A stretch of 64,000 bases of DNA from a virus (IMGVR_UViG_3300028833_000061:137402-201401), one strand, 5' to 3'; shown: positions 34,265 to 63,685, counted from the first letter of the stretch. Notes: a model not told the origin generated them from the letters alone. Made by a program: numbers and translations.

Positions 34265-35455
34265 CTACGGTCTAGTCGATTCCTCGCCAAGCCCTATAAG
34301 AAGGCGAAGCTCCTCAGGTGTTAGCTTTCTTTTCTTGTTGCGAGAGCCTGTATCAACACCGTCTATCCCGCGAAGGAGCAAATAACCCTGTGGAGATATC
34401 GAGCCCAGTGGAGCTGCGTTACCAGACGCAGACGTCTGCGGCTTACCCGCTGTCTCCTGAAGCTTCTTATACTGCTCGATTACCTGTCTTGCTTTCTCTT
34501 CTTCACGCAGTCTCTGAAGATCCGCCTCATCCTGTTCCTTAGCAAGCTGCTCCGCCTTTGCTTTCGATGCGAACGACTTGTCTGCCTCAGAGCCGGCCCT
34601 GAGCTTCTGAGACTGCTCCTGTGCGGCAAGTATTTGTCTGAGCAGCGGCGACATTGTTATGCCTGCTATTTCATCAGATCCGTTACCTGCCGTAGAGCCC
34701 CACAAAGGAACGTCAACTGTCTCTTTTACAATGCGACTTGGTTTAAAACCATCAGGAAATAGCTCACGCTGCTTAGCATTGGCTGCCTCTATAAGCTCGT
34801 TGTCATGCTTTATTTTGTTCGCCTTTTGAAGCCACTCCGCATACAGTTTCTTGTTCATCGCCGCTTCTCGTTTGGCGAGATTCCGATTCAGCTCAATTGC
34901 TCGATTATTAGCTTCTCTTACATCTTGGCCCATCAAATATCTCGTTGGATGAAGCAATCCACCATATGTATTTTGTCTTACCTCTTCCTCCGACATCACA
35001 GGTGCTCTCTTAAGCTTTATAGGCTTAAAAGGCGGTGGATAGCTAATCAGTTCCTGATCTTTGACTTTTTCGCCTCTGACAGGATATGAAATGTTTACAG
35101 AAGCATTATTAAAACCGTTAGTTATGGAGGCTAAACCACCTGGAAGTGTAACAAATCTATCTGTAGCAAGCGGACCGGCAGCATCTGGAGGAAGTATGTG
35201 GTTGATCATTGCTGGATCAGACAGTCTGAATGTCACTGGCTCGGTAGACGACAGATCGTAAAAGCCGCTCTTAAGCTTGTCCTCCTCTTCGCCAGGAGCG
35301 AGACGTACTCCTCCTCCAAGAGGACCTGTTGGCCTGTCAAGACTGCTAGGAGATGTGTCCTCAGGTTTAAGCGGAAGGCCACCGGGCAGTACAACCATGT
35401 CGGCTGCCAACTTCCTCATCGCAGACACGAAGCCATTCTTGAAATTATTCGTCAT
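34265..35455 (-). CDS. Leader-bearing putative capsid cargo protein (396 aa)
   Basis: MTNNFKNGFVSAMRKLAA leader; SD CAGGAG. Confidence 0.65.
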   Translation of the reverse strand: MTNNFKNGFVSAMRKLAADMVVLPGGLPLKPEDTSPSSLDRPTGPLGGGVRLAPGEEEDKLKSGFYDLSSTEPVTFRLSDPAMINHILPPDAAGPLATDRFVTLPGGLASITNGFNNASVNISYPVRGEKVKDQELISYPPPFKPIKLKRAPVMSEEEVRQNTYGGLLHPTRYLMGQDVREANNRAIELNRNLAKREAAMNKKLYAEWLQKANKIKHDNELIEAANAKQRELFPDGFKPSRIVKETVDVPLWGSTAGNGSDEIAGITMSPLLRQILAAQEQSQKLRAGSEADKSFASKAKAEQLAKEQDEADLQRLREEEKARQVIEQYKKLQETAGKPQTSASGNAAPLGSISPQGYLLLRGIDGVDTGSRNKKRKLTPEELRLLIGLGEESTRP

Positions 35456-35553
35456 GTTTACTCCTGTAGATGGATTAAATCTGTTTAAAGAATACCATAG
35501 CTAAAAAAAAAGCAAAAGACTATTTATTATAGATGAGGAATTATGGAGGTGTT

Positions 35554-36792
35554 CTACCATTCTTTGTCTATATTCTTCTCGAGCCACCCGCCACGCTGAT
35601 GCCTGTTACCGTGCACCTTGTGCACTATATTCGTTCCGTTTATGTGATAGCCATTATAACCGAGATGGTCTCCCTCTGCAGGAATTACTCGAATACCAAT
35701 CCTCGTGTTGTTCGATATCACGATCTTCTTGCCGTTCTTAAGCCTAAGTACGATCTCGTCGTGGCCATCTGTCTTATCTGGAGTAAACGACTCGACCTCT
35801 CCTTCGCCAGACTCGTAGGTCTCACTCTTAGAGGATGCCTTCTTCTCAACGACCTTGTCGATGTTTCCTGAGCTGAAGCCCATGGACCCATACTTCTTGT
35901 TATCGAATTCAACGACGAACGACTTCCAGCCGTGCTTGTTTTCAGGGTCTATGCGCACGATCGTGCCTATATGGCCCTTCTGTTGGCATCTGATGTTGTC
36001 TGAAACCTTTACACGATCCCCGACTGAGAACGACTTCTCCTTTTCCTTCAGCTCATCCTCGGTAGGAAACTTTGAGTTCGGAAACAGCTTCTTTAGGTCG
36101 AGCGAAGAGGCCTTCTTCTCTGCCACGTTGTATACGAGCTTCCTGTAGCCTTTCGCGTTCTTCGGAGTGGCGTCCTCGAACCCTGCTGACAGGGCGGCCC
36201 GTATCGACGGTTCGTTGTCTGCGAACGCCTCCCACAATAGCCTTTTGACATTCTCCTTCCTGGCTTTCCTGACGGCCGCCTCCACCATGATCTTGGCTAG
36301 ACCGTTTCCACGGGCCTCCGAAGAAACGGCAATTATATTGTGAGGAGGAAGTTTCCTGCCTCTCTTGTCCTTGCGCGAGTAAAACTCCTGGAACCCTACG
36401 GGATCGCCTTTTCCGTCAACTACGACCTGCCTGTCGAACAGTATGTCGTCTGGTACCTTGCGAAGGAAGTCAGGATGTCTTGGAACAAGGTTTGCCCTGT
36501 CGTCGAAGTCAAGCTTGTCGAACACCTTGAGTGTGTCCTCGTACGTTGGATCCTTCTTGAGGCTATACGATTCGGCCTTCTTGCTCCAATCCTCGTACGG
36601 ATCAGCTCCGTGTTCCAGCTCCCATTTTATCTGAGCTTCCCTAGCATTCCTTACTGCAGGATTGCCGTTGTTGCTTATGCCAGACGCACCGTCCGTTACG
36701 ATGAAGAAGTTCAGGCCTTGCTTCTTTGCAAGCCTGTTCACGGCGTCAACCAGCTTACGTGCCTTAATCAGCTTTTTCTCTTCCGGTGTCAT
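35554..36792 (-). CDS. Four-domain polyprotein: small domain / GNAT acetyltransferase / SH3-KOW-like / DUF3465-like OB fold
   Basis: GNAT IAVSSEARGNGLAK..DNEPSIRAALSAGF; FSVGDRVKV..GTIV..FVVEFD; GEVE..HDEIVLRLKNGKKIVISNN..GDHL..VH..H..GWL. The domains are separated by KKA. Confidence 0.75.
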   Translation of the reverse strand: MTPEEKKLIKARKLVDAVNRLAKKQGLNFFIVTDGASGISNNGNPAVRNAREAQIKWELEHGADPYEDWSKKAESYSLKKDPTYEDTLKVFDKLDFDDRANLVPRHPDFLRKVPDDILFDRQVVVDGKGDPVGFQEFYSRKDKRGRKLPPHNIIAVSSEARGNGLAKIMVEAAVRKARKENVKRLLWEAFADNEPSIRAALSAGFEDATPKNAKGYRKLVYNVAEKKASSLDLKKLFPNSKFPTEDELKEKEKSFSVGDRVKVSDNIRCQQKGHIGTIVRIDPENKHGWKSFVVEFDNKKYGSMGFSSGNIDKVVEKKASSKSETYESGEGEVESFTPDKTDGHDEIVLRLKNGKKIVISNNTRIGIRVIPAEGDHLGYNGYHINGTNIVHKVHGNRHQRGGWLEKNIDKEW

Positions 36793-37097
36793 TAAAATCT
36801 AAACTGAAAGCCGGTAACAGGTGCTCCGCTTCCATGTCTTATGTTAAGCGCGTTCACCAAAGGTTTGAAAACCCACTGATTCCTCTGCAGCCAGTTAGGC
36901 TTTTTATAGTGCTCAAGTCCGGGAAGATCTGTTTCTTTCGGCGAATCAGACAAAGAAGCAGCAGAAGACACTGCCTGTAGTCCAGCTGTAGCTGGTGCGT
37001 GTCCTCCCATCCATACAGACGCGAAAGGCAGTGACAAATCTGGCTTCTGCTCTTCTGCCAGCTTGTCCATGAATCCGCGTTTAAAATTTTCCGTCAT
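36792..37097 (-). CDS. Leader-bearing putative cargo protein (101 aa)
   Basis: MTENFKRGFMDKLA leader. Confidence 0.6.
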   Translation of the reverse strand: MTENFKRGFMDKLAEEQKPDLSLPFASVWMGGHAPATAGLQAVSSAASLSDSPKETDLPGLEHYKKPNWLQRNQWVFKPLVNALNIRHGSGAPVTGFQFRF

Positions 37098-37160
37098 TTT
37101 TAAAACCTTTATGCTACTATATCACATAAAGAGCAATTTTAACACACAAAGGGCCTGCAG

Positions 37161-38048
37161 ATGACAAACAACTTCAAACGCGGTTTTACAGACGCTATCA
37201 GCACAATGCAGAAACAGGCCGCACTATCGTGGCGCCCATGGAGGTGGGGCAAAAACAACGCAGAAACGGGAAACAAGTACAACTGGGGAGATTTATGGAC
37301 TGGGCTTGGGGCCGCCGGTGCCCAGACGATGAAAGCAATGTCTCGTGCCGGACACGATCTTGCTAGAGGCGCAAGTTCTCTTCTAGGGCAAAGTGACTGG
37401 GTTGATAAAATAAACAAATCCGAAAAATATACAGATAATTTCTGGAACGAACATACTCCTGGCGGACAGGACTCTGTAAACACATTTGAATACGACCCGG
37501 GTGCGAGACAGGCACTAAGAGCAACTGAATTGATAGGTGCTACTCTTCCTGGTGCGGTCGCAGGGCCATATGGTTTGCTTGCCACGACTGCTGCAACAAA
37601 GGCGGGAACAAGACCGGACACTGGAGTGAAGAGCATTTCTTGGGATGAAAACGGAAGACCTGTTCCTGAGCTAGTTAATGCGGATCCGGCGTACAAGGCC
37701 TGGGATAATGCAACCGGCTTCATGCCATATACGTGGGTTGGAAACCTCACAGGGGAGGTTAACAACGAGATGGCAGACTCAAACTCAGACAAATACTCGG
37801 CTGGCAATGTCGTTGGAGCCGGAGCAACCGGGCTTACCATGGGTGCCATCGATAGAGCGCTTCGATACGCTGGAAGAAAATGGCCAGCCTTAACCGCTGC
37901 CGGAGCAACTCTTGCAGGAGCAGGTACTGGAGCCTGGAGAGCAAAGCCATTCTTGCGCGAATGGAATGAAAATCTAGACACCCTACGTGGAGACGCAGAA
38001 ACAGCGCGCCCCGACGTACTTCTGCACAGAACAAACCCTCAAAGGTAA
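37161..38048 (+). CDS. Leader-bearing Gly/Ala-rich putative cargo protein (only supported + strand gene)
   Basis: MTNNFKRGFTDAISTMQKQAA leader; several Gly/Ala hydrophobic stretches. Confidence 0.7.
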   Translation: MTNNFKRGFTDAISTMQKQAALSWRPWRWGKNNAETGNKYNWGDLWTGLGAAGAQTMKAMSRAGHDLARGASSLLGQSDWVDKINKSEKYTDNFWNEHTPGGQDSVNTFEYDPGARQALRATELIGATLPGAVAGPYGLLATTAATKAGTRPDTGVKSISWDENGRPVPELVNADPAYKAWDNATGFMPYTWVGNLTGEVNNEMADSNSDKYSAGNVVGAGATGLTMGAIDRALRYAGRKWPALTAAGATLAGAGTGAWRAKPFLREWNENLDTLRGDAETARPDVLLHRTNPQR

Positions 38049-38077
38049 AAAAAGCCGACGATTTTTACGTCGCCGGC
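38047..38077 (-). terminator. Terminator between convergent genes
   Basis: Bulged GCCGACG/CGTCG(CC)GGC hairpin next to an A7 run. Confidence 0.5.
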
Positions 38078-38096
38078 TCTGTAGTTGTGTAGGCCG

Positions 38097-38546
38097 CTAA
38101 GTTTGCGTGGTTGTTTGAACCTTTTTTATCTTTTCAACGTATGGATCCGTAGATTTCTTTAGCCAGCCCTGAGGACCACCGTTGTGTATTCGAATAAGCA
38201 CTTCGATGGTTGCGGGTTTTCCTGTGCGACGAGTATATGCCGAACCGTACCGAGTAAGATACGCTCTTGCAACCTCATAGGACTTAGCCCTGTCCTTCAT
38301 GTCGTTCAGGGTATATGAAAGGCGGGAGTCGGTCAAGTAGGGCTGCTGGATCTGAAGGCAACCGACAGATAGCTTTCCGTTGGTGTCGGTGACGACCACG
38401 TCGGTCCTGCCGTTGCTTTCAACAATAGCAACTGCATCGAGAAACGACGTCCAGTCGGCGTCGGTAGTCGGAATAGTCGAAAGGTCGATTCCGAAGGAGT
38501 TGATGACCATGCAGAACGCCACGACCATGGCTGCGAGTTTTTTCAT
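38097..38546 (-). CDS. Secreted lysozyme-fold muramidase (destabilase/i-type-like)
   Basis: Signal peptide MKKLAAMVVAFCMVINSFG; catalytic VESNG, GCLQI, RIHNGGPQG. Confidence 0.8.
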   Translation of the reverse strand: MKKLAAMVVAFCMVINSFGIDLSTIPTTDADWTSFLDAVAIVESNGRTDVVVTDTNGKLSVGCLQIQQPYLTDSRLSYTLNDMKDRAKSYEVARAYLTRYGSAYTRRTGKPATIEVLIRIHNGGPQGWLKKSTDPYVEKIKKVQTTTQT

Positions 38547-38669
38547 TTGTTTTTTTTTTGTTAAAAAGAATCACGGGCATCAGGAATTGATGTCCGCTTC
38601 TTTTTACCAGGTATCCAACCCGGCATTATATTATAACGCTCAAAAGTCTATTTTTATTCTTACGCAGCA

Positions 38670-40301: not shown

Positions 40302-40310
40302 AGTAGGCTC

Positions 40311-43300
40311 CTACATGTCTAAAATTTGAACTGGATCGTTCATTCCTATGAGACCTTGTCTGTAGGCCTCCTTGGCATCTTTCGCTGTTCTGAATACCTT
40401 GGGCCTCTTCCTCGTCGCAGGCCTTGTAAGATTGTACAGTCCCATCACCTGCTCGTTCTCAGGCTTGTATCTTGGAGACGACAAATCTGTAAGCGAAATT
40501 AGATTCTTGGATGGAAGCATCTTCTCGTATGCTTCCCTGACAGCCTTGTCAGACGACGGCACGTGAATGTTAACCTGGTCTCCGTCGAAATCTCCAGCCA
40601 TTGGCGATGCGCTGAACGGGCTTATTCGTATCGACTTTCCGTCAACAAGCGACGGTTTGTATGCCATGATGTTGAACTTGTGCCATGTCGGAGCCCTGTC
40701 CATCAAAACAGGCCTGTTTGCCATCTCCTCCTGAAGCGCATTAAGCGCTGTGTCGTCCCTGCCTCTTATCATATTTACAGCCTGAACGGGACTGTACCCG
40801 CGTCTAACCAACCGACGCTGTACATATGGCTTATACATCTCCCACGCAATATCCTTCGGTATGCCGATCTGGTCCATATCCAGGTTTTCATCTGGAGTTA
40901 TGACCGCTCGTCCTACATTGTCGAGGTTCTTGGCTATGATCTTGGCCTGGAACATAGAAAATTTCGGAGAACCTGTTCCTATAACCTGCCTTATGGCTCC
41001 TTTGATGTTCTTGGACTGTCCCTCTGGCGTTATTGGGTCTCCAAGTCCAAACACAGCGGCTACAGACTTGTACAGGTTCAGCCTCTCGTCCGCTAGAGAT
41101 TCGTCTGCAACAGATCCCTTCAGCGCAGAATAATTCTCGGCGTTCTCTATGACGTCCTTGTATAGATCGTTAAGATCCGATACTAGTTGCGTATCGCCAA
41201 GTTTAGACACGGGCCTGAACTTCGGAGGTATGACAGGAACCTTTGTTATCATCCAATCCTTGGGCTCAAGGCCCTGCTCCTGCATCGATTTAAGATATCC
41301 AAGTACCTTTACCGCGTTGTCTCTTCCGGCGCCTCTCTTGTTCTGGATGTCATTTCTGGCTGCCGATATTGCCTTGTCGACGTCAATGGCCTCAAGCGCT
41401 GACTTTATCGCCTCTCCGCCAGTCTTTCCATTCAACTTCTCTGTGCCTGACAAAATCTTCTCAAGCTGATCTACTGTAAGACCAAGTACACGCCTTACAG
41501 GCTCCTCCATTATAGGATTCGGTATAGGCTCTGGAAGCTTTATAGCTGACCACCTGAGACCGTCTGGACCGCCTGTCTTCCCGAGGTCAAACAAACCGCC
41601 GTCTACAGGCTTCAGATCTGAATTCATCATCTTGGAATTCTTTATAATTCTATTGCCTGCCATCTCGTCGATATCTTTGTCCGTAAGAGGAAGTATAGAC
41701 GTCTTGCTTCCCTTCTCTACGACATTTATTCCTCCGGCCTTCAGCGTCTCCAGGAATTTGTTGTATATGAAAGGAACACCAGGTTCAGGTACTGGAAGCC
41801 CTAATCTAAGTTTGTTCCAGTACTCCTCGTTCTTCGTGCCGCGGATCGTCATCATATCCTTTAGATTCTCTGTCGCGCCGTGTGACAAAAGAGCCGTCCT
41901 GTCGAGACCCGAGACCCTTTTGGCTCCTGAAAATCCGCCTCTTGCCGGTGCTTCGTCCTGAGTATATGCAGCATCGTTTCCTCTGGCAGACAGCTTTTTC
42001 TCTGCGAGATGGTGGAACGCCTGAATGTATACGTAGCCATCACCGATGTTGTGCAGCGTCTTTCCGGTACTTGGGTCAAATATGTCCGAAGAATCCTTGA
42101 CTCCGGCAGCATCAAGCTGTGCCTTCGCCCAAGTCGCCCATCCCTCCTCAGGAGGAAGCTGTGGGATGCGTACCTGCTTTCCGGTCTTCTTGGCAACCTT
42201 GCCAAGAGCTATCTCGATAAGCTGATTCGGGGCAACTCGTGACAGGAATCCCATAGGATTCATTAGAATCTCGTAAGGCTCGTTCGTAACCGCGTCACGA
42301 GGCATCTCGTCGTCTGGACGGACTTCTCCTATTGTACCCTTGAGAGCGTCATGAGGAGACAGCTTGTCTGCTACCTGCTTTGGCGGCGTAGTCACGACAT
42401 TTACCTTGGCGCCGCTTGGCGTCATTACAGCATCGACAACAGTGCCAGGCCAGTCGTGCTCCCACACCTCTGATCTATCTGTAAACGAATTACGCAGCGT
42501 CTTTGACAGCTTGCCGAGCATTGCATCTTTCGCAGACAGAAGCTTCGGCCCGATAGATACGATTATAGGATCGCCTTTGTGAAGTACGGTTCCAGGCTTG
42601 GCTATTCCATTGTCGTCTATGTTTTCAAGCTGCTGCTTCGTAAAAGCCTGCGGGAATGCCGCCATGTACTTCTTCTTGTCTATAAGCACGCCGTTCTTCT
42701 TGTCCGTGTCAAATCCGAACAGCTGTTCGGTAGCCAGCTTCTTGGCCGCAGTCTCGGATATGACTATCGCGTCCTCGAAGTTGCCTGACTTGCCTGACGG
42801 CATAATTGCTACCTTCAGGTTGACGCCCGTATTGAACGATCCTGTTTTCTTGTCCGTGAAGTTGGAGTGGGCTATCAAATCGCCCTTTCTAACGCTCTGC
42901 CCGACCTCAACGGCAGGAAACGTCGAGAACGACGACATTCTATTATGTGGATAGTACTTTACAAGATCGTACGTCCTCTTCTTGCCATCTGCACCCTTTA
43001 CGACGACACTGTCGTCGTTCACAGCAGTCACGACTCCGTCTTCATTGGCTGTGACGGAGCCTATTCTCTTTCCATAATGCTCAAGAAAAGTCTCTTTTCC
43101 ATCAGGCATCAAAGACGCGACTAGAGGAACCTCTCCCTTTGCCATCGGAAGATACTGCTCCCAGAACTTTGTAGCATAGAACTGTCTTGCGCCCTGGACG
43201 CCTGTCGGCATTGGATTGAAGTTGGTTGTCGTAGTAGACATGGACGAGAAATCGGGCACCATGTACGAAACCTCGTTCCTTGCCACCTTGGTAGGAACGT

Positions 43301-44741
43301 TATCCTTCATTGCATACAGGAATTTCGAATTGGGATCCTGTCCAGGAAATGCAACACCACCATCGACAGCCTTTGCCAGGCTTACAAACTCCTTCTTGCC
43401 CGTCTTCAGATTTATAAACTTCGAGTACAGCTGGCCGTCTTTTCCTTTATATGTATTGGAGGCGGCTCTGACATCCACACCCGCATTCATCGACTCAGGG
43501 CCAGCAACAGGATCAACAAATCCAAGATAATCTCCCTGCACATCCCTTGCTTCTGCAGTAACGGCATCTGGAGATCCGATTCCGCCTTGGCCCATCTTGG
43601 TTATGCGGTTCATCTGAACATAGTTCGATATCGGATTTGCCTCTTCGCCAGGAAGCGCAAGACCCGTTCCGCTCAAGAAATGCTCGATGTACGGATTCAG
43701 CGCGCCTCTCGGAATCCTTCCAAGATTACGATCGCGCTTAGCCTTCCACAACAGCTGCTGCGTAAGCTTTCCAGAGTCCTTGTCGACACGTTCCTTAAGA
43801 AAGTCCTCTATCGAATAGACGCTAGAATACCTAGGAGAGTCTCTTCTGTCAGGCTGTTCGTCGCCCCTGGATATGTTTATTACCTTCTGCGAGGCGCGTA
43901 GGAGAAGCTCTGGCGTGATTCCCTTGGTATCTACAAGACCCATAGTGCGCTGGACGACATCCTCGTCCATTCCACACTGTGCAAGGGAATCCTTAACGTA
44001 TCTCGCCATCTCAAACTCATTGGCAAGAGCATCCGCCTTCTTGCCTGCAAGTCTGCGATATAGCCTCTTCATAGCCTGAGAGTCGTGCTTCTTTGCGTTC
44101 TCAAGCGTTACGTCGTTGCCCCAGTACTTTGCGATTGTCTTGTCGTCTACGCCTATGCCCTTAAGCACTGGATACAACGGTATGTGACCCTGGCCAACCT
44201 GCATGCTGAACACGCCTGTCTCTGGATTCATCTCTATTCTGAATCCAGGGCCTGTTCCAGGTTTTACATTGAATTGGGCCTCGTACTCTCCAGACGTCTT
44301 TCGTCTTGCGTACACGCCAGGACGAAGTCTCGACTGATTGACTACAGTGTACTCATTTCCATTAGAAATTATCGTACCTCTGTCCGTGTAATACGGCACG
44401 TTCATTATAACGTCATCACGCTCGTCTATGACCTTGTTGCTCTTCTTGTCGATAAGTTTCCACGTTCCAGACATCCTCGTCTGGAGCTTACGGTTCTTCA
44501 GAAGAGCGTCCTTCTGCTGTGCTATGGTGAAGCTCTGAGGACTGGTATACCTTACGTTGTCCAGCTCGATCCTGTAGTCGTCGTTCTCAACAGGAAACCG
44601 TTTCTTTACAGAATCCAGAAGTCCATCATATATGAACTGACGTGTCTTTTTTGTGTCATCGAACTGGCGCAGGTCGTCAGGAACGTCGGACACCGTGCCC
44701 GCCGCCTGCTTTTGTGCCAGTGGTATGCTGTCGAGAAGCAT
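40311..44741 (-). CDS. rpoBC: DNA-directed RNA polymerase, beta fused to the N-terminal part of beta' (carries the catalytic site)
   Basis: Beta motifs: NFEDAIVISE, ADKLSPHDALKG, NPMGFLSR, HHLAEKKLSAR, GAKRVSG. Beta' motifs: VPVIPPKFRP, DLNDLY, GRAVITP, DRAPTWHK, AGDFDGDQ (40578-40598). Confidence 0.95.
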   Translation of the reverse strand: MLLDSIPLAQKQAAGTVSDVPDDLRQFDDTKKTRQFIYDGLLDSVKKRFPVENDDYRIELDNVRYTSPQSFTIAQQKDALLKNRKLQTRMSGTWKLIDKKSNKVIDERDDVIMNVPYYTDRGTIISNGNEYTVVNQSRLRPGVYARRKTSGEYEAQFNVKPGTGPGFRIEMNPETGVFSMQVGQGHIPLYPVLKGIGVDDKTIAKYWGNDVTLENAKKHDSQAMKRLYRRLAGKKADALANEFEMARYVKDSLAQCGMDEDVVQRTMGLVDTKGITPELLLRASQKVINISRGDEQPDRRDSPRYSSVYSIEDFLKERVDKDSGKLTQQLLWKAKRDRNLGRIPRGALNPYIEHFLSGTGLALPGEEANPISNYVQMNRITKMGQGGIGSPDAVTAEARDVQGDYLGFVDPVAGPESMNAGVDVRAASNTYKGKDGQLYSKFINLKTGKKEFVSLAKAVDGGVAFPGQDPNSKFLYAMKDNVPTKVARNEVSYMVPDFSSMSTTTTNFNPMPTGVQGARQFYATKFWEQYLPMAKGEVPLVASLMPDGKETFLEHYGKRIGSVTANEDGVVTAVNDDSVVVKGADGKKRTYDLVKYYPHNRMSSFSTFPAVEVGQSVRKGDLIAHSNFTDKKTGSFNTGVNLKVAIMPSGKSGNFEDAIVISETAAKKLATEQLFGFDTDKKNGVLIDKKKYMAAFPQAFTKQQLENIDDNGIAKPGTVLHKGDPIIVSIGPKLLSAKDAMLGKLSKTLRNSFTDRSEVWEHDWPGTVVDAVMTPSGAKVNVVTTPPKQVADKLSPHDALKGTIGEVRPDDEMPRDAVTNEPYEILMNPMGFLSRVAPNQLIEIALGKVAKKTGKQVRIPQLPPEEGWATWAKAQLDAAGVKDSSDIFDPSTGKTLHNIGDGYVYIQAFHHLAEKKLSARGNDAAYTQDEAPARGGFSGAKRVSGLDRTALLSHGATENLKDMMTIRGTKNEEYWNKLRLGLPVPEPGVPFIYNKFLETLKAGGINVVEKGSKTSILPLTDKDIDEMAGNRIIKNSKMMNSDLKPVDGGLFDLGKTGGPDGLRWSAIKLPEPIPNPIMEEPVRRVLGLTVDQLEKILSGTEKLNGKTGGEAIKSALEAIDVDKAISAARNDIQNKRGAGRDNAVKVLGYLKSMQEQGLEPKDWMITKVPVIPPKFRPVSKLGDTQLVSDLNDLYKDVIENAENYSALKGSVADESLADERLNLYKSVAAVFGLGDPITPEGQSKNIKGAIRQVIGTGSPKFSMFQAKIIAKNLDNVGRAVITPDENLDMDQIGIPKDIAWEMYKPYVQRRLVRRGYSPVQAVNMIRGRDDTALNALQEEMANRPVLMDRAPTWHKFNIMAYKPSLVDGKSIRISPFSASPMAGDFDGDQVNIHVPSSDKAVREAYEKMLPSKNLISLTDLSSPRYKPENEQVMGLYNLTRPATRKRPKVFRTAKDAKEAYRQGLIGMNDPVQILDM

Positions 44742-44747
44742 CGTAGT

Positions 44748-45071
44748 CTAGATCTCTCCGTCTTCGTGCAACTTGGCTATTGCGTCGGCAATAAGTCTCT
44801 TCTTTTCGTTAATAACGTCCTTAGCACCGCTATCTGATCCTACAAGCCTTACACGCCCGCCTATTAAGTTATCGCCGCTCTTCTTCTTTTTCTTGGATGA
44901 ACCTTTCTCGTCCTGCATGGCGATTATTGTATCGATCTTCTGCTCCAGGTCTCTGTTTGTCTTGTCTGTGTTGATAGACAGGTTTGCGAGCGTCTCGCCG
45001 GCAGAGCGCATCATGTCCAAAATTCCCGCTTTCTTGCAGAAAAACGAGTATCCTAGTTCTTTTGCTGTCAT
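44748..45071 (-). CDS. Small protein with a leader-like N-terminus
   Basis: MTAKELGYSFFCKKAG. Confidence 0.55.
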   Translation of the reverse strand: MTAKELGYSFFCKKAGILDMMRSAGETLANLSINTDKTNRDLEQKIDTIIAMQDEKGSSKKKKKSGDNLIGGRVRLVGSDSGAKDVINEKKRLIADAIAKLHEDGEI

Positions 45072-47053: not shown

Positions 47054-47054
47054 T

Positions 47055-47363: not shown

Positions 47364-47374
47364 TTCTACAAAAA

Positions 47375-48136: not shown

Positions 48137-48442
48137 TTACTCAGCTCCTTCCGTCTGTTCCTCGATCTCTTCCAGCTCTGCCATCGCCTGATCATACGCA
48201 GAGTTGCTCTTTAGAATAGTGTCATACGGTATTCCTAGCCACATAGACAGGCCTACGTCGTCAACAAGATACCACTTTCCAGCCGGGTGCTTAAGCGGAG
48301 GAACAACAACAGTAGATCCTGGAGATACGACAAGGATACGCTCACCGTACACTACAGGATTGGCGTATTCAGGCTGTCCCTTTCCTCTGAAAATGCAGCA
48401 GCCTGAACACAGAACGGCCAAAGCTGTGAGCAAGACTCTCAT
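48137..48442 (-). CDS. Lipoprotein (possible o-spanin)
   Basis: MRVLLTALAVLCSGC lipobox-like signal; Pro-containing body. Confidence 0.55.
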   Translation of the reverse strand: MRVLLTALAVLCSGCCIFRGKGQPEYANPVVYGERILVVSPGSTVVVPPLKHPAGKWYLVDDVGLSMWLGIPYDTILKSNSAYDQAMAELEEIEEQTEGAE

Positions 48443-49176
48443 TTGAAAAGCTCCGTATCCTCGTCAAACCAGATGGAGACCTTGGTAGGCACCTCTAGCT
48501 CCTTCACGGATTTCTTAACCTTATTGAACGAGTCCTTGTACGATATACCCTTACCTATCAGACGGATAATGGCGTTGGTTAGCTCGCCTCCTGCAGCGTC
48601 TCCGTACGAATACTGTCCGTCTGAGCATCCTCCCCAGTGGAGCAGCCTTACGCCTGACTTCCTCGCGGTCCTGGCCATAAACACGTGTGGATTGCCGACC
48701 TGCTGGTAGTTTGTTCCTGAATTACAGCAATCTGTAACCATGAATACTCTGCATTTTGCATTCGACAGTATATTCCAGATCTCGTTGTCAACGATCTCTC
48801 CGTCATCTACGCACAGCGTCTCGTCAAGACCATCGACCTCTCCGGGATCCTTTGACCTAATCTGGCCTCCATGGCCAGAGAAAAAGAATATAAACAATCC
48901 TGAGTCGTCTGTACCGTTAACGGCGTTCACGAGCTCGGCCAGCACTGCTCCTTTTGTAGCCTGCCGATCCACTAGAAGAGTCTTCTTCTTGGCAGGCACC
49001 TTCTTATATATGTTGGTTGCATCCAGGCTTGCGCCTGGACAGGCACCGAACTTACGGCTGATGCCGACTCCTACCGACAGAAGGCGAATCTTGTCCTTGG
49101 GGGACCCAAGACTGCCTGTCAGCAGTCTTATCACCCAGTTTATCGATTTTCCAAACCAACTGTCGTTATTGACCAT
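48439..49176 (-). CDS. Metacaspase / caspase-like peptidase (C14)
   Basis: FFFSGHGGQ (His), DGLDETLC, VTDCCNSG (Cys); likely start MVNND at 49176. Confidence 0.9.
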   Translation of the reverse strand: MVNNDSWFGKSINWVIRLLTGSLGSPKDKIRLLSVGVGISRKFGACPGASLDATNIYKKVPAKKKTLLVDRQATKGAVLAELVNAVNGTDDSGLFIFFFSGHGGQIRSKDPGEVDGLDETLCVDDGEIVDNEIWNILSNAKCRVFMVTDCCNSGTNYQQVGNPHVFMARTARKSGVRLLHWGGCSDGQYSYGDAAGGELTNAIIRLIGKGISYKDSFNKVKKSVKELEVPTKVSIWFDEDTELFK

Positions 49177-49405
49177 CTGTACACCCGTTGTACTTCTCGT
49201 ACAGCTCGCGTCTTTCCGCAGCAAGATAGTTTGCATCTGTAACGCGACCTTCCCGTAACGCCTGTGCAAGCTGCTTTTCCTTTCTGTCTATCGCTGCCTT
49301 CAGCTTTCTACACTTGCTAGTACGATAACGGAAGAAACTGTAGACCATGTCTACAATCTTCGTAAAAGCGCCTGCGATTGAAAAGACGGAAAAAGAAAAA
49401 GCCAT
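49166..49405 (-). CDS. Small protein with a hydrophobic N-terminus and coiled coil
   Basis: MAFSFSVFSIAGAF..KLKAAIDRKEKQLAQAL; overlaps the metacaspase start. Confidence 0.5.
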   Translation of the reverse strand: MAFSFSVFSIAGAFTKIVDMVYSFFRYRTSKCRKLKAAIDRKEKQLAQALREGRVTDANYLAAERRELYEKYNGCTDGQ

Positions 49406-49926: not shown

Positions 49927-49937
49927 GACAAAGTTAT

Positions 49938-54625: not shown

Positions 54626-55177
54626 CTATCCTACAAAATACTTATTTATGTAAATCTTCCCTAGAAAATATCTAACTGCAAAGTACGCTATCTGATTGGC
54701 CGTGTTTACCCTGAAGTCCGCAGGGTCGCTTAGATTTACGATGTTCTCGTTCGTAAACACTATCCTGCATGCAGGATCGCTTATCTTAACCCAGAACTCT
54801 ATCGAATACGCCTGATCGCCTGCGAGATTTTCGAGGTTCTTGAATGTAAATGATTCCGTGCTGGTACTCGTAACGGTAGCGAAATACACATGATACGTAT
54901 TATCGACTTCTATGTTCCCTCCCTCGGAAAGAGTACCCTCGTTGATGTTCTTTACCTTTAGAACGTTCGGTACGACGGAAGCTATCGTTATCGATATCTT
55001 TCCATCCTTTATATCAACTCCAGGGCCTGGAACCAACAAATCCTGCTTCTTCGACAGTGTCTTGTCTATACTGTCGAGACGTTTGTCTCTTTTTGCAAGA
55101 AGCTCGTCGATGTCACCGACGAGATAAACCCTGTCGTTAAATTTTATCTTATGATGCAGTACGCCTTCTGTATTCAT
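54626..55177 (-). CDS. Tail-fibre-associated protein (183 aa)
   Basis: KKQDLLVPGPGVDIKDGKIS fibre-type motif; beta-sandwich-like C-terminus. Confidence 0.55.
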   Translation of the reverse strand: MNTEGVLHHKIKFNDRVYLVGDIDELLAKRDKRLDSIDKTLSKKQDLLVPGPGVDIKDGKISITIASVVPNVLKVKNINEGTLSEGGNIEVDNTYHVYFATVTSTSTESFTFKNLENLAGDQAYSIEFWVKISDPACRIVFTNENIVNLSDPADFRVNTANQIAYFAVRYFLGKIYINKYFVG

Positions 55178-55202
55178 TGCTTGCCTTACCTAGTGCCATT
55201 AC

Positions 55203-57728: not shown

Positions 57729-60700
57729 ACCTTCTTATCAGTTCTATGACAAGCCGATTGATGGCATTCGACGTGAGATAGCCACCTTCAAGCGCTATTT
57801 CCTCCTGGGTGTCTATCATACCGATAAGTCTGTCTGTAGCTTCCTGCGTATAGCTGACGACAGCCGCCATGTTCGAATTCGCGTCCGCCAAAGTACCGGC
57901 CAGATTAGCACGGTCTATCGCACTCTTGACCAGATCAAGAGCATAGGCCTCGTTGACACGGTCGTTTGTATATGCAACAGCGGTAACATTCGTGATAACA
58001 CGTGTTATCTCTCCACGATCATCTAAAATACGATTAAGCTTGTTCTCGATCACATCGTCAAGATTCGCGTACGAAGTCACTGTGCGCCTGTAATTCACTG
58101 TCTCGCCCAGCGGACTGATCTTCATATTCAGTTCGGTCCCGTCTATGGCTGCAGAGGTGTAATCGTACAAAAATATTCCTGAATTGAAGTTTCTATTTGT
58201 AGCATTGACGGCGGAATTAATCTGGACATGACTGGAGCCTATCGTATAGGCACAACGGGTATGAACAACGTTCAGCGCCTTGGAGGCGTCAAGCACATAC
58301 TCGTACGCTGTTTCCGATGTTTTCTGGTCTGGCACCGTAGCTGTGCCATACGTCATTCTGTCATGAATAGTCGCATACGTTACAAACCACCTGATACGCT
58401 TTATAAAGCGCTCGTACAGTTCGTCGAAATCGGCTTTTCCGCGAATATAGTCTAATAGCGTATCAAAACCGCTTACATAGTTGTCGTCGTCAGCCGAATA
58501 TCTAAGAAGAAGCCCGAGGCGTGGACTTCCTTTCCTATTCCATTCCAGATTGTAATCAGCGGAATCATCGCCTGTCGACAGCGTAACGTCGATGATAAGC
58601 GGCAAAACGATGTCATTGATACGATTCGTACCATCGACGACGTTAACAGAAAGCGGAATCGATGTAGTCTTAAGCGCAGAAACGGCAGTATTATCGTCGT
58701 ACAATGAAAGCCCGCAACCGCTGTTCGGCATCATAACTCCGGCAGGCCCTGGGGACTGTAGAGTGTTCAGCACGTGAGGATAATTCATGTTATAAGTACC
58801 GGCACTGTAAGTAGTCGCGGCCGTCTGTGGAAGCGCTATAAGTCTTACGCCGCTGTAATCCTTCTGTAATATGCTGTCGTCTGAAAATACGCGATGCACA
58901 TTGAATGTATATGGCGTCTGCAGCCTGCACCACTTTCCGTTGTACGCACTCTCATATGCCGCCTCACTGCCATAGGCGTCAGAATAGTCAATCAGCTGGC
59001 CCATCGTCAGCATCCATTTAACCCCAGTTCCAGGAGCTGCCCTAGTGACATCTGTCCGATACAGGCCATTATTAAGGTTTTTTCCGCCTATGATTAAAGA
59101 CGTCCACCCAGACCCGTACGATTTTCCGTTTACAGTAGTGGATTTTCCACTCAGAAAATTAGTGAGTGAAACAAGAGAGTCCTCTGAAAAATCTATATAA
59201 ACCGTCTGCGGAACAAGTGAATCCTGCACATAACCAGTATCAGGATCGTCAACCAGCGCGTTTGTGTATGAAAAAAGCTGCACTACGGAGCTAGTAGGAG
59301 CATACGTTATAGGAAATCCCAGCCTGACACCGGCGTCCTTAACGGCAGTCATTTCGACATTCGACACGACAAATATTGAATCGTTCAGCGCATTAAACCA
59401 CTGCTTGACGGAATTTGTAACATATTGCTCTGTATCGGCGTTCGCTTCAACGATTCTGTTCGTTATATCATCGTACAGTCGCTCTGTAACCTCTACGCCT
59501 CGTTCTATTCTGGCAAGACTGTTGGTAGAGTCATCAAGAACAGTCTCTGCATACTCAAGACGCGACGATACCGCCGAATCTAGGATTGCCTCAATCACAG
59601 ACACGTCGCCAGATACTGCCTGGACAGCGTTGCTCCATGACTCCACCGTATCGAAGAACGAATCTCTGAACGGGAAGAAAACATTCGATACCGTATTAAG
59701 AAGTTCTGTCGACGCAACTACATTGCTCGAGAAGAACTCGCGCTCATCTGCCAGACCGGACTCGATCGTGCTGGCGACAATATTATTCCAGTCATTCGAT
59801 ACCCTGTTCAGATGCCACTCAGTTATAACAGGAGACATCGGGCCGTACGGGACGGTATTCGTGTCGTAGTTTCCATACATCTTCATGTATGCCGCAGGAT
59901 AATCCGTGCCGTCGTATGTCAAAGAATACACGACGAACTTGTTGTCAAAATTGCTGTAGTCAGACCAGTCGTCCGTGTATGCGTGTCCTGAAGACGATAG
60001 ACACACGTAAAAAAACGAATCAGTGCCAGGATCAAGCACTATGGGAGAATCATCCGTCGCCTCGAACAGCTTTCTACCGAGTTCGTTGGCAGCAGAAGGC
60101 GTATATATCAGCGCAACTCTGAACGCGTTGCCCCTTGACGGCTTCGGCACATACTTCTCAAACAAGACAAGCACTGCGTTCGTACTTGAAACTCCCTCGG
60201 CATAGCCATCTACCGTCGTACCGTTTATCTGTCTGTATGCAACTCTTTGAACACTGTAATCGCTTTTAAGGAGATTGGCGATAACGTCCCTTTCTTCTTT
60301 TACGACTGGAAGATCGCCAAGGCCGAGCTGCTTGAATACTAGATCCGCACGAGCAACATCGCTCAGGCCCCTAGGAACTTCAGCGGTATAATATGTTTGC
60401 TCTAGAAGCTCCAAAAGATTTTCTCTGTCAAATATGATCTCAAGACTTCCATCGGCGATCTCAGGACTATAGGCAGAAACGCGCACATTGAACGAGACCT
60501 TATCTGATCTGACAACGACACTTACAGCCTCTGCGACCTCAAGCCCGTAGGCACGTCCTCCAATGCTTGAAATATAGTTATTCTTAGCAGAATCAAACAG
60601 CTCATCTATCACCGCCGCGCTTCCGCTTTGTTCTATATAGTCGTCTACGGCCTGGCGTATCGTACTGTCAGTGTAGTCTGAGACGATGTCTATGACGGCA

Positions 60701-60930
60701 TTTGTATCAAGTCCAGGCCGAATGTCCATGCCATTGACAATATCTATAACAGACTGTGTATTTATAGATCCTTGTCCAATCTCAGAGACAGCATTGCTGA
60801 TTGCGCCTGCTATCGAAGACATCGTAGGAATGTCGTTTGTAAACGAAACCTCCCACAGTGTCTCCGCACACGCATTTGCCGAAAAGACAGCAACCGCAAA
60901 AAATGTCAAAAGCCGCTTCATTGTCATCAC
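57700..60930 (-). CDS. Large signal-peptide-bearing fibre-like protein (1076 aa)
   Basis: MKRLLTFFAVAVFSANACA signal; DTNAVIDIV-type repeats; coiled-coil middle. Confidence 0.6.
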   Translation of the reverse strand: MMTMKRLLTFFAVAVFSANACAETLWEVSFTNDIPTMSSIAGAISNAVSEIGQGSINTQSVIDIVNGMDIRPGLDTNAVIDIVSDYTDSTIRQAVDDYIEQSGSAAVIDELFDSAKNNYISSIGGRAYGLEVAEAVSVVVRSDKVSFNVRVSAYSPEIADGSLEIIFDRENLLELLEQTYYTAEVPRGLSDVARADLVFKQLGLGDLPVVKEERDVIANLLKSDYSVQRVAYRQINGTTVDGYAEGVSSTNAVLVLFEKYVPKPSRGNAFRVALIYTPSAANELGRKLFEATDDSPIVLDPGTDSFFYVCLSSSGHAYTDDWSDYSNFDNKFVVYSLTYDGTDYPAAYMKMYGNYDTNTVPYGPMSPVITEWHLNRVSNDWNNIVASTIESGLADEREFFSSNVVASTELLNTVSNVFFPFRDSFFDTVESWSNAVQAVSGDVSVIEAILDSAVSSRLEYAETVLDDSTNSLARIERGVEVTERLYDDITNRIVEANADTEQYVTNSVKQWFNALNDSIFVVSNVEMTAVKDAGVRLGFPITYAPTSSVVQLFSYTNALVDDPDTGYVQDSLVPQTVYIDFSEDSLVSLTNFLSGKSTTVNGKSYGSGWTSLIIGGKNLNNGLYRTDVTRAAPGTGVKWMLTMGQLIDYSDAYGSEAAYESAYNGKWCRLQTPYTFNVHRVFSDDSILQKDYSGVRLIALPQTAATTYSAGTYNMNYPHVLNTLQSPGPAGVMMPNSGCGLSLYDDNTAVSALKTTSIPLSVNVVDGTNRINDIVLPLIIDVTLSTGDDSADYNLEWNRKGSPRLGLLLRYSADDDNYVSGFDTLLDYIRGKADFDELYERFIKRIRWFVTYATIHDRMTYGTATVPDQKTSETAYEYVLDASKALNVVHTRCAYTIGSSHVQINSAVNATNRNFNSGIFLYDYTSAAIDGTELNMKISPLGETVNYRRTVTSYANLDDVIENKLNRILDDRGEITRVITNVTAVAYTNDRVNEAYALDLVKSAIDRANLAGTLADANSNMAAVVSYTQEATDRLIGMIDTQEEIALEGGYLTSNAINRLVIELIRRYAVTNGLTD

Positions 60931-61626
60931 CTACTTTAGCTGGTTGGTAGTGCCGTTCTTTATGTATCTGGCCATCGTCTTTATCATTTCAAGCATATCC
61001 GATGCATCCATGTTGTCACTCTCGATATCACTGTTTATTATGAAATCGAGATCATTGACTCCTCCGCCGAAACGTTTCGATGTGTTTTCTGTCGCAGATA
61101 CTCTCGCGTCCAGCCTGGCCATCTCATTGGTAACATCGTCGTACGACTTCTCAACTCTGACATGCGATAGAAGATACACGCAGTCGCTCACATAGCCCTC
61201 GAGCTCGTGAAGTGTAGTCGGTGGATTGTTGGTATATTCCTCGTAGAAGTGCTCGTCTCCTATTACGATGAAGAAATTGCGAAGATCCGTTATCGACTTG
61301 CCTACAAACCACTCTGTGGCGAACGGGTCCGTGTATGTGTTGACTCCGTATGCCGGATACTGCTGTCCGAACTCTGATACGTAATTCGTAGGCCAAGCAA
61401 ACACGATAACTCCGTCATTGCCGGAAAAAGTGACGCCTGTTTCGTCTACTTTGCTTGTCCCAAGGACAACACCGTCGGCACGAAGCACATCCGTCGTAGC
61501 GCTTCCAACGTAAAACGAATCGACATTAAGTACTCCGTTTGTATCTACCGAAACAACCTTGTTGTCGGCAATCACGGCGAGTCCAAGCGCAATCAATATC
61601 ACAGAAACACAACTTAGTCTTGACAT
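60931..61626 (-). CDS. Signal-peptide-bearing protein (231 aa)
   Basis: MSRLSCVSVILIALGLAVIA, then VVSVDTNG. Confidence 0.6.
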   Translation of the reverse strand: MSRLSCVSVILIALGLAVIADNKVVSVDTNGVLNVDSFYVGSATTDVLRADGVVLGTSKVDETGVTFSGNDGVIVFAWPTNYVSEFGQQYPAYGVNTYTDPFATEWFVGKSITDLRNFFIVIGDEHFYEEYTNNPPTTLHELEGYVSDCVYLLSHVRVEKSYDDVTNEMARLDARVSATENTSKRFGGGVNDLDFIINSDIESDNMDASDMLEMIKTMARYIKNGTTNQLK

Positions 61627-61627
61627 C

Positions 61628-62344
61628 TCATTTACCTTTCATGTTTAAAAGATCCGCAATGACGCCTACAGTCTTTTCAGCTATATCGGCATCGGTTGAA
61701 AGCGCCTTAAGCCTGTTTTCAAGATCCTTGCGGTGCCTCTTCTTGGCCTCCTTGGTATCATCGTCAGTGCTGTCTTCCATTGCAGCGTCGACGACCTTCT
61801 GCGCACGGATATACCTGTTGTGCCTTCTGTACGGATCAACATACATAACCTGGGCCAGTTTCTCGTCAGGATACGTAACCGCGAACCCGTTTATAAGCCC
61901 TTCCCTGTTATACAGCATTTCAGATATCTCGTCCTCCGATAGAACGCCTATTGACGCAAGAAAAGCGCTGGCTTCCTCTATAGAATCGAAGTCATACGCC
62001 ACCTGCTTGTTCTGAACGTGTACGGCTGTCGAAGACCAAGCTGCCTTGTTTATGCCAGATATTACTGGCTCATCGCGCTCGCAGTCGCTCTTTTTCTTTT
62101 TCTCGTCGATCTTCTTGCCCTTGTTGCGCCCGGCAAGGTAAGACGCAAGAATTATCATTGGTATGACCTGCGCCTTCTTCTCTTCCAATCCGTCGTGTTT
62201 TGTAGCTGCGAAGTGGCGCGCATCCTCCTTTGATATACTGTTCGCTGCGCGCACTACGCTCTCTGGCGCATTCTTCAGTTTTCCGTTGAGATATGCCACA
62301 ACCATGCCGAAGAATCTCTGCTGGCTCTTTGACTTCGCAGGCAT
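61628..62344 (-). CDS. DUF3008-like N-terminal domain fused through KKA/KAA to further modules
   Basis: MPAKSKSQQRFFGMV...FAATKHDGL-EEKKA; start at 62344. Confidence 0.6.
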   Translation of the reverse strand: MPAKSKSQQRFFGMVVAYLNGKLKNAPESVVRAANSISKEDARHFAATKHDGLEEKKAQVIPMIILASYLAGRNKGKKIDEKKKKSDCERDEPVISGINKAAWSSTAVHVQNKQVAYDFDSIEEASAFLASIGVLSEDEISEMLYNREGLINGFAVTYPDEKLAQVMYVDPYRRHNRYIRAQKVVDAAMEDSTDDDTKEAKKRHRKDLENRLKALSTDADIAEKTVGVIADLLNMKGK

Positions 62345-62351
62345 CGTGATA

Positions 62352-62681
62352 TCATGTCCTTCTCTTCGACCCAACCGTAGTTGGCTTCACGCCAGGAGTG
62401 TTCCACTTTTTCTCAAGACGTTTGACTCTATTTTCCGTGCCTTCTCCTGCAGAATAGTCGGCAAGCCTCTGCTTCGTACCTGGCTTAGTGGTTGTAACTC
62501 CATACTGTTCTACAGGTGGCGGGTCCTCAAGCCCAAACACTTTCTTAGCCGCTATCTCGACACTTTCCTTCCAGCTCGGTCGCTCCTCTTCTGGATTATC
62601 GAGATATTTAAGCACAGGAAGCCGCATTGCCGCGGCTTTTGTCATATAGTCAACAAACCCCTGTTTGAAGAAAACTGTCAT
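62352..62681 (-). CDS. Leader-bearing putative cargo protein (109 aa)
   Basis: MTVFFKQGFVDYMTKAAA. Confidence 0.65.
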   Translation of the reverse strand: MTVFFKQGFVDYMTKAAAMRLPVLKYLDNPEEERPSWKESVEIAAKKVFGLEDPPPVEQYGVTTTKPGTKQRLADYSAGEGTENRVKRLEKKWNTPGVKPTTVGSKRRT

Positions 62682-62708
62682 ATACAGCGATCAACATGCG
62701 TGCAACAC

Positions 62709-63284
62709 TTATACTGCCTGAACCTCTTCCTCGGGCTGCGCTGCTACCGGTGCTGCGGCTGGAGCAGCAGCTGGAGGTGGTGTAGCGGCAGGAGCGGCAG
62801 GAGCAGCCGCAGTGGCTGCTGCAGGAGGTTCAACTGCCGGAGCGGCGGGAGCTGCCGCAACAGGAGCCGGTGCAGGCGCAGGAGGCTCAGCTGCAGGAGC
62901 GGCTGGCGGAGGAGTTGCTTCAGCAGCTGTAGGAACCGCGGTCTGTGCTACGCCGCGGTTTTTAAGATATTTCTTAGCTTGTGCGTCGTTCTTGTGCCAC
63001 TGCCTGCCCTGGTCGTCAACGATCCAATCAGCAGGGAGCTTTCTTCCAGAAGGCATCATACGAAGTTTTACATCCGATGGAGTGTGGAATGGTTCCCATT
63101 CCGCGCTTGTGTAGTCGTATTCTGGTGCAGCCGATATCTTGATCAGGCTGTCGAGTGCCTCCAGACGCATTCCTGTCGGCTCCTCAGCTTCTGCCTTCTT
63201 TACGTAAGGCATGGTACGTCCGTTGACGTATGATGCCAGCTTGTTCATGTAGTCCGTGAATCCTGCCTTGAATGCTTCTGTCAT
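62709..63284 (-). CDS. Leader-bearing putative cargo protein with a Pro-Ala tail (191 aa)
   Basis: MTEAFKAGFTDYMNKLAS; SD AAGGAG. Confidence 0.7.
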   Translation of the reverse strand: MTEAFKAGFTDYMNKLASYVNGRTMPYVKKAEAEEPTGMRLEALDSLIKISAAPEYDYTSAEWEPFHTPSDVKLRMMPSGRKLPADWIVDDQGRQWHKNDAQAKKYLKNRGVAQTAVPTAAEATPPPAAPAAEPPAPAPAPVAAAPAAPAVEPPAAATAAAPAAPAATPPPAAAPAAAPVAAQPEEEVQAV

Positions 63285-63317
63285 TTCCTAGTCTCCTTTG
63301 TTCAGCGAATTTCTACC

Positions 63318-63346
63318 ATTCTACTAGTTAAAATCTAAACAAGCAA
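63318..63346 (-). promoter_or_regulatory. Putative sigma70-type promoter
   Basis: TTGCTT-N17-TAGAAT. Confidence 0.55.
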
Positions 63347-63358
63347 CAGTCTACCTGC

Positions 63359-63685
63359 TTAAGATCTTTTCAGCAAAGTCCCTCTCTTGAGTGGATCCTC
63401 GGCAAGAACAGGCATAGCTCTTGGAATCTTCTCTCCTACAACTGGCGGCTCCTCCATGATAGCCGGGGGCTTCCTTCTGATAGATATAGTCACATCTGGA
63501 GACGTCGTTCGTCTCCCGGATATCCTTGGGTCGGGCTTTATATCTCTTGTAAACGGTTTTCCGAAATCAATCGGTCGTTTCACTATAGGAGTAGCAGGCT
63601 GTGCTGCTGGCTGAGCCGCCCGCTGTATCGCCTGGCCATATTTTTCCATGTATGCAACAAATCCTGCCTTAAATGCCTCTGTCAT
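63359..63685 (-). CDS. Leader-bearing putative cargo protein (108 aa)
   Basis: MTEAFKAGFVAYMEKYG; SD AAGGAG. Confidence 0.65.
   Translation of the reverse strand: MTEAFKAGFVAYMEKYGQAIQRAAQPAAQPATPIVKRPIDFGKPFTRDIKPDPRISGRRTTSPDVTISIRRKPPAIMEEPPVVGEKIPRAMPVLAEDPLKRGTLLKRS

Follow-up and report, generated by a model that had tools for sequence, protein, structure and literature searches.

Here, we describe a short N-terminal leader carried by 11 proteins of a 201,401-bp phage genome, to which we give an even chance of being a capsid-targeting and release tag that follows the logic of the T4 capsid-targeting sequence (CTS) in a non-T4 lineage and with a different cut motif, K-x-A. The window, by which we mean the whole stretch analyzed (IMGVR_UViG_3300028833_000061:137402-201401), is the final 64 kb of that genome. 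Its DNA is contained in sheep-gut metagenomes, and the nearest cultured relative of the phage is Salmonella phage Arash, whose RNA polymerase (RNAP) is 32% identical. A first-pass annotation of the window had noted the leader on six open reading frames (ORFs) and had read it as an 'address plus release' system for loading proteins into the head. We retain that reading with three of its details corrected; it draws on the K-x-A end of the leader, the K-x-A sites of the head proteins, the gp21 fold of the protease, a genomic context of portal and RNAP genes, and hypervariable cargo.

All six ORFs of the window were confirmed at the coordinates in Table 1, each beginning with M-T-x-x-F-K-x-G-F. 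Through a 24-residue hidden Markov model (HMM), we found 11 copies genome-wide at 33-44 bits, the next best match scoring 5.5 bits, and additional copies in related genomes. In a six-frame scan of the 201,401 bp, every in-ORF match to F[KR].GF was the N-terminus of a real ORF. Two looser leaders that had been suggested at 33103 and 45071 were detected by neither leader HMM and are rejected as family members. The five copies outside the window start at genome positions 730, 1285, 3981, 4754 and 6047, all on the minus strand, which also carries nearly all genes of the window. The two genome ends share 68 bp within a Pro/Ala repeat, indicating that the genome is circular or circularly permuted and that these five copies are contiguous with the cluster at 62-64 kb.

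The leader measures ~17-20 residues in this genome, and its conserved residues are encoded by differing codons (TTC/TTT, AAG/AAA and four Gly codons; 52% the same), which shows that the peptide rather than the DNA is conserved and is under selection. On the basis of this codon variation, an origin of the leader as a DNA repeat was rejected for this genome. The bodies behind the leader proved to be as dissimilar as first described: those of the six window proteins had no Pfam or PHROG family match, and body-only tblastn of this genome's leader proteins against related loci gave few matches. The bodies are hydrophilic and Pro/Ala-rich, with a pI above 8.4 in 8 of the 11, versus 41% of proteins genome-wide.

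A profile built from the 11 N-termini found the leader on many unrelated bodies in metagenome contigs. In this genome (G0) and in three close-relative contigs (L002, L004 and L005), leader genes flank the portal gene on both sides; in a fourth (L006), there is one, upstream. The portal proteins of these four contigs are 81-96% identical, and most of their leader bodies are unrelated to those of this genome, so that a near-invariant portal lies beside fast-changing leader bodies. The repertoire of the T4 internal-protein loci likewise turns over quickly. The portal assignment refers to a 588-aa (amino acid) gene central in the leader cluster (L001:1695-3461, L001 being the start of the genome), which is orthologous to the portal-annotated gene of Arash (E 2e-75) and was likewise labelled portal-like by a language-model search; a PDB sequence search gave no match for either the portal or the protease.

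The major capsid protein (MCP) belongs to a family of more than 400 members. The window-type leader was missing from complete IMG/VR relatives at ~60% MCP identity; the same positions there hold proteins that start with a module of 26-30 residues, with the consensus MT-x-YEQGF-x-x-KCAE-x-GVDG ... LL-K-x-A. This long form probably folds as a helix-turn-helix, and G7, F8, K11, C12, A13 and E14 are near-invariant in its core. Forms intermediate between short and long (genome position 1285 here, P0035 and L002 10828) indicate that the window leader is a shortened derivative of the long module. The amphipathic helix proposed at first is thereby revised to a diverged form of a longer helix-turn-helix. 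The related genome G5 (151 kb, 36% GC) holds 11 N-terminal copies and G4 (177 kb, 59% GC) holds 9-11, all in the portal/RNAP/head block except for one G4 copy at 49368, and among the copies found in this genome or G5, none lies in the replication or early regions.

To gauge the breadth of the family, the long-form profile was searched against 1.84 billion cluster representatives (50% identity clusters), which gave at least 704 clusters at E<=1e-3, 70 of them also passing E<=1e-10. In 145 of the best 150 clusters, the tag lay within the first residues, and the genomes carrying it span 36-65% GC. Among the bodies of 100 relatives, ~12-15% are glycine zippers and the rest have no assigned family; such zippers are what channel-forming ejection proteins could be expected to have. 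The tag is covered by no Pfam or PHROG family, and a full-text search with tag fragments found no paper on it, in agreement with the initial impression that the motif had not been described, although the underlying principle has precedents in the T4 CTS and SPN3US gp53/gp54. The tag is likewise absent from what has been cultured: tblastn with its 30 residues gave 0 matches in 50,697 cultured-phage records, blastn of the leader region against cultured phages gave none, and the leader profile found none in Arash. The exact DNA pattern for M-T-E-A-F-K-x-G-F had no match in IMG/VR.

These distributions bear on whether there is a signal at all. An ordinary paralogous family, with its N-terminus kept by recent duplication or gene conversion, could account for G5, where several leaders are near-identical in DNA and 73% of codons are the same at identical residues. 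Such an origin is scarcely probable given that synonymous codons vary freely in the present genome, that the tag spans so wide a range of GC content and at least 704 clusters sharing less than 50% identity, and that most bodies have no detectable similarity between close relatives. In G5, six tandem leader genes (L053:13142-18580) are bordered on one side by the gene for the beta-prime C-part and on the other by that for the 774-aa orthologue; they are near-identical in DNA over ~81 bp, which could drive cargo shuffling by recombination.

The end of the tag is as regular as its core. In 133 of 145 distinct leaders, K-x-A occurs 9-13 residues past the KCAE core, against ~8% expected from the density of K.A in the bodies. 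Leu occupies P5 in 83% of leaders, and P2 and P1' are variable. Similarity between tags stops directly after K-x-A, and the G5 paralogues are near-identical up to K-Q-A and unrelated beyond it. Conserved P3 and P1 positions flanking a free P2 are typical of a protease site and not of a single helix face. Within this genome, K-x-A-[S/A] closes the leader at residues 15-21 in six of the 11 cases. The terminal K-x-A of the first-pass annotation is not universal in this genome; the five other local leaders are taken up below.

The same motif is concentrated in the head proteins. In this genome, the protease gene is followed by that of the scaffold-like protein, by two small genes and by that of the MCP. 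Three head proteins stand out for K-x-A-[S/A]: the scaffold-like protein (10 sites versus 2.1 expected), the protease (6 versus 0.7) and a 416-aa protein (6 versus 1.0). The same three orthologues lead the corresponding list in G4 and G5. Positionally conserved K-x-A sites include one after the catalytic domain of the protease, two in its C-terminal extension, and one in the scaffold sequence D-A-N-A-K-E-A. We also ran an unbiased scan of all 400 gapped dipeptides over the head-assembly proteins upstream of the MCP in 19 related loci. K.A ranked first in all 19 (z 4.3-7.6), including a group with only 31% MCP identity, and K-x-A was constant across them; gp220, gp222 and gp223 of Arash were also enriched. 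With the leader family excluded, K.A at residues 8-42 was present in 14 of 24 head-block genes of this genome versus 23 of 173 others (p = 3.5e-6). Several of these N-terminal sites are kept in orthologues (MCP, protease, and the 416-aa, 774-aa and 181-aa proteins), and the tail genes have none. From these patterns, we infer that K-x-A may be the cut site of the head protease.

The protease candidate agrees with this. Its N-domain was modelled from an alignment of nine homologues, with a core predicted local distance difference test (pLDDT) score of ~75-90. The best structural match of the model was T4 gp21 (5jbl; Z 9.8, root-mean-square deviation 2.9 A, 139 of 165 residues), followed by the protease of varicella-zoster virus (VZV; Z 6.9), and Foldseek also ranked gp21 first. 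Pfam gave no match, and PHROG 18299 matched weakly. H56, H84, H97, S148 and H176 are invariant in the nine homologues and include His and Ser candidates for catalysis. The model thus supports assigning 20885-22435 to the T4 gp21/herpesvirus assemblin fold. A K-x-A specificity would fit the P3/P1 reading format of gp21-fold proteases, which cleave at L/I-x-E in T4 and at S/A/G-x-E in phiKZ-like phages (PMC5694885). The N-domain also holds a Cys/His cluster that is invariant in the nine homologues (C151, C158, C161, C174 and H176) and suggests a zinc site. We know of no zinc site described for T4 gp21.

Two other enzymes of the phage were considered as readers of the leader: a caspase-like C14 peptidase, which could cut after Lys, and a GNAT acetyltransferase, which could modify a Lys or the N-terminus. 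This genome, G4, G5 and L002 all have the C14 gene, whose neighbors in G4 are leader genes and the portal gene; in the leader-less Arash, tblastn gave no match to it. Translation of the GNAT gene is coupled to that of a leader gene. However, the C14 contrast consists of a single leader-less genome, in which K-x-A enrichment persists without C14, so that it is the gp21-fold protease that the motif follows; G4 gave no GNAT orthologue. We therefore hold a signal for either enzyme to be highly unlikely. No radical-SAM gene was seen adjoining leader genes. The GNAT domain itself (35554-36792) is part of a multi-domain protein with E-K-K-A-S-S at its domain junctions, encoded between two leader genes, and this protein resembles a polyprotein that would be cut at K-x-A.

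The surroundings of the leader genes point to the virion. Arash has orthologues of the MCP, portal and protease of this genome, and its gp218 and gp220 likewise have counterparts here. In purified Arash virions, both RNAP subunits rank within the top five proteins by number of spectra, with gp206 in first place (PMC10585845), which makes it very probable that this lineage packages RNAP and many other proteins in the head. The mass spectrometry coverage values for Arash, which include 100% coverage from only 2 unique peptides, are uninformative on N-terminal processing. Leader copies of this genome lie between the two RNAP genes as well as around the portal gene.

This setting bears on the possibility that the leader has nothing to do with the virion and is the N-terminal domain of intracellular or membrane effectors that bind a common phage or host partner, with K-x-A incidental. 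Gly-zipper and low-complexity bodies would suit such effectors, and rapid turnover is typical of host-interaction genes. By contrast, the genes sit within the structural block, beside the portal gene, in every relative examined; the motif at the end of the tag is the head-protein motif; and the replication and early regions of this genome and G5 hold no copies, the one at 49368 in G4 being outside the structural block. We judge such a function decidedly unlikely.

In the mechanism that we favor, the tag would dock its protein onto the assembling prohead core, with the scaffold-like protein, the inner face of the MCP and the portal as candidate partners, and the tagged protein would thereby be enclosed as the shell closes. 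The gp21-fold protease would then cut after the K-x-A that ends the tag, and at the same motif would cut the scaffold, other head proteins at their N-termini, and itself within its C-terminal extension. The freed cargo, mostly basic or of the Gly-zipper type, would remain in the head and be delivered with the DNA and the virion RNAP. Docking, packaging, cleavage and injection are all proposed here from sequence patterns. Stated for the lineage as a whole, the proposal is that a large and uncultivated group of phages of ~150-210 kb with a virion multisubunit RNAP loads hypervariable injected proteins (at least 704 families, ~10 per genome) by one portable, folded tag ending in K-x-A, as an independent counterpart of the T4 CTS that is larger in scale and has a new protease specificity; we place this somewhat below an even chance.

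Several observations weigh against a targeting and release tag. Five of the 11 local leaders lack K-x-A-[S/A] at the usual place and have K-[M/L/C]-A-E (K-x-S in two) or K-Y-G instead. P1' is variable across the wider tag family, whereas the scaffold sites were counted with S/A at P1', and the core of the tag itself holds K-C-A, so that the K.A signal of the leaders is in part structural. Another function that depends on the N-terminus could account for the strict M-T start and the fixed spacing, and the Gly-zipper bodies could act in the membrane of the infected cell instead. No cultured phage was found with the tag. Arash has the protease, the K-x-A pattern and the virion RNAP, yet no leader, which indicates that head assembly and RNAP packaging can do without the tag and that it is an accessory system; the present phage, too, has no tag on its RNAP subunits. 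Moreover, the helix-turn-helix module can also be found inside proteins, in tandem and at a C-terminus, which fits a general docking domain equally well. The leader is thus nearly always, but not exclusively, N-terminal as first described. Internal copies had also been claimed in two ORFs of the window: the one at 31876-32553 was supported weakly (12.5 bits), and the resemblance of the one at 16995-17528 is by eye only. Co-folding of the leader with the scaffold-like protein and the MCP, for which controls were not run, gave a score of 0.00 and weighs neither way.

An alternative is a permanent docking or oligomerization helix-turn-helix that would anchor varied virion or ejection proteins to a common partner without being removed, comparable to head domains of the MuF/gp7 type or tail-fibre adaptors. 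It is consistent with the internal, tandem and C-terminal copies, with a core conserved like that of a folded domain, with the five local copies that lack a clean K-x-A-[S/A], and with the virion-like genomic context. It does not explain why 133 of 145 tags end in the motif that recurs above expectation, and at conserved positions, in the protease and scaffold, or why paralogue similarity stops exactly there; in addition, neither Phage_Mu_F (PF04233) nor any other Pfam domain was detected in the window leader proteins or in the 100 relatives. We consider an unremoved docking domain unlikely.

In T4, the gp21 prohead protease cleaves a CTS off the internal proteins IPI, IPII and IPIII and off Alt (Mullaney and Black 1996, summarised in PMC5694885). 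Both systems have a short N-terminal peptide on unrelated proteins that ends in a motif linked to the phage's own gp21-fold protease, both have variable cargo genes, and in both the scaffold and protease carry the same motif many times, with cutting at these sites predicted in the present phage. However, the two peptides show no sequence similarity and are not homologous: the motif here is K-x-A (P3 Lys, P1 Ala) versus L/I-x-E, and the ancestral tag is a probable helix-turn-helix of 26-30 residues versus 10 residues in T4. There are 9-11 tagged genes per genome here and at least 704 cargo clusters, in an Arash-like lineage with a virion multisubunit RNAP, and the system is known from sequence alone. 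What is new relative to the T4 CTS is therefore the Arash-like lineage, the K-x-A motif, the longer and probably folded tag, and the scale of at least 704 clusters; the logic was already known.

Among giant phages, SPN3US gp53 and gp54 have identical 15-residue N-termini ending in that phage's own cleavage motif, and the inner-body and virion RNAP propeptides of phiKZ and 201phi2-1 are cut at S/A/G-x-E (PMC5694885). These phages resemble the present one in carrying a virion RNAP and many ejection proteins in the head, as is very probable here, in conserved N-termini that end in a protease motif, putative in the present phage, and in a protease that processes its own C-terminus, a step that is predicted here. 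They differ in that their propeptides are mostly longer than 100 residues with no single portable tag, and in both motif and family. Herpesvirus assemblin shares the fold class and, by our prediction for the phage, P1 Ala often followed by Ser and the scaffold as main substrate; P3 Lys would set this phage apart. The maturation sites of assemblin read (V/L/I)-x-A then Ser, and we know of no N-terminal cargo tag in herpesviruses.

In the staphylococcal phage 80alpha, the capsid and scaffold proteins carry N-terminal extensions that imitate ribosomal protein L27, and Prp, a host protease, cleaves them. As is proposed for the present tag, unrelated head proteins there lose a conserved N-terminal peptide to a specific protease; however, the enzyme is that of the host, the L27-like sequence is unrelated to the tag, and the system is not known to load cargo. 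MuF/SPP1 gp7 head proteins have variable C-terminal toxin domains, and the cargo-loading peptides of encapsulins are usually C-terminal. Both combine a conserved address module with variable cargo in an HK97-fold shell, and MuF genes adjoin the portal gene, but their modules are not known to be removed by a maturation protease.

If the favored mechanism holds, 'tag, package, clip' cargo loading would no longer be confined to T4 but would include an unrelated, highly diverse phage lineage from gut and environmental samples. Leu-x-Lys-x-Ala would be a new specificity for a prohead protease, and one could use it to predict mature head proteins in hundreds of genomes. Hundreds of fast-evolving proteins would become candidate injected effectors (anti-defense, membrane-channel or DNA-coating), and the tag would be a candidate handle for packaging foreign proteins into capsids. 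Should it prove to be an uncleaved docking domain, it would still be a widespread small module absent from Pfam and PHROGs.

The leader genes and their neighbors in the window are listed in Table 1. By position and orthology, the tail module occupies ~9-17 kb, and head proteins beyond the protease extend up to 29939.

Table 1 Features of the window discussed in the text (aa, amino acids; bits, leader HMM score).
Feature	Coordinates	Strand	Remarks
177-aa protein adjoining the MCP gene	16995..17528	-	N-terminus tag-like by eye, ends K-Q-A
Major capsid protein (MCP)	17649..18614	-	Arash gp226 orthologue; conserved K-x-A at residues 28-30
Acidic scaffold-like protein, between protease and MCP genes	19584..20930	-	Some of the ten K-x-A-[S/A] positionally conserved
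Prohead protease (predicted), 516 aa	20885..22435	-	N-domain modelled with T4 gp21/herpesvirus assemblin fold; C-terminal extension with six K-x-A-[S/A]
Head-module protein, 416 aa	25009..26259	-	Arash gp220 orthologue; of its six K-x-A-[S/A], the site at ~residue 30 is conserved
RNAP beta-prime C-terminal part	30005..31876	-	Orthologue of Arash gp216 (found in virions)
225-aa protein, Gly-zipper-like segment	31876..32553	-	Two internal helix-turn-helix tag copies, first ending K-Q-A-S
Leader protein, 396 aa	34265..35455	-	33.1 bits; leader residues 1-17, ending K-L-A-A; near-identical homologue P0016
Leader protein, 101 aa	36792..37097	-	44.5 bits; stop overlaps start of GNAT polyprotein gene
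Leader protein, 295 aa, Gly/Ala-rich body	37161..38048	+	36.4 bits; divergent from neighbor; homologue P0012 on 80-kb contig
RNAP beta fused to beta-prime N-terminal part	40311..44741	-	Orthologue of Arash gp206
Caspase-like C14 peptidase	48439..49269	-	Pfam E 2e-12
Leader protein, 109 aa, basic body	62352..62681	-	32.8 bits
Leader protein, 191 aa, Pro/Ala-rich body	62709..63284	-	38.9 bits
Leader protein, 108 aa, very basic body (pI 10.9)	63359..63685	-	37.0 bits
C-terminal part of 311-aa leader protein	63727..64000	-	Start at genome 730; spans junction via PAAQPA-type repeat

In the 311-aa leader protein at the junction, the number of PAAQPA(V/A)R tandem repeats differs among close relatives (P0007, P0011, P0022 and P0025). 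Contigs of one sheep-gut metatranscriptome sample coincide exactly with leader genes (34258-35132, 36823-37086 and 37155-37523); they are no proof of transcription and were not used.

Outside the leader family, a few other N-termini and one further protein drew our attention. The 181-aa protein (32558-33103) has ~19 N-terminal residues ending in K-Q-A-F-V-P (K-R-A-Q-F-V-P in the G5 orthologue), followed by D-P-x-T-G-M-P-I repeats, an arrangement that resembles a propeptide. A second small leader, M-K-T-x-A-x-x-x-L-I-K-T-A-[Q/A], which also ends in K-x-A, is found on two unrelated proteins of the portal cluster (L001:1294-1698 and L001:7010-8179), and L005 carries an orthologue of the 134-aa protein with this second leader. 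The MCP (17649-18614) and the portal protein (L001:1695-3461) both begin with M-T-Q-N-V-P; the T-Q-N start is kept clade-wide in the MCP alignment and in the portals of L002, L037, L040 and L041, and may be a second shared N-terminal signal. Beyond the window, at genome positions 107906-108952, a 348-aa protein holds 13 K.A sites versus 3.2 expected and an internal stretch resembling K-K-C-A-E-Y-G that is conserved in G4 and G5, and it may be a head-core protein encoded outside the head block.

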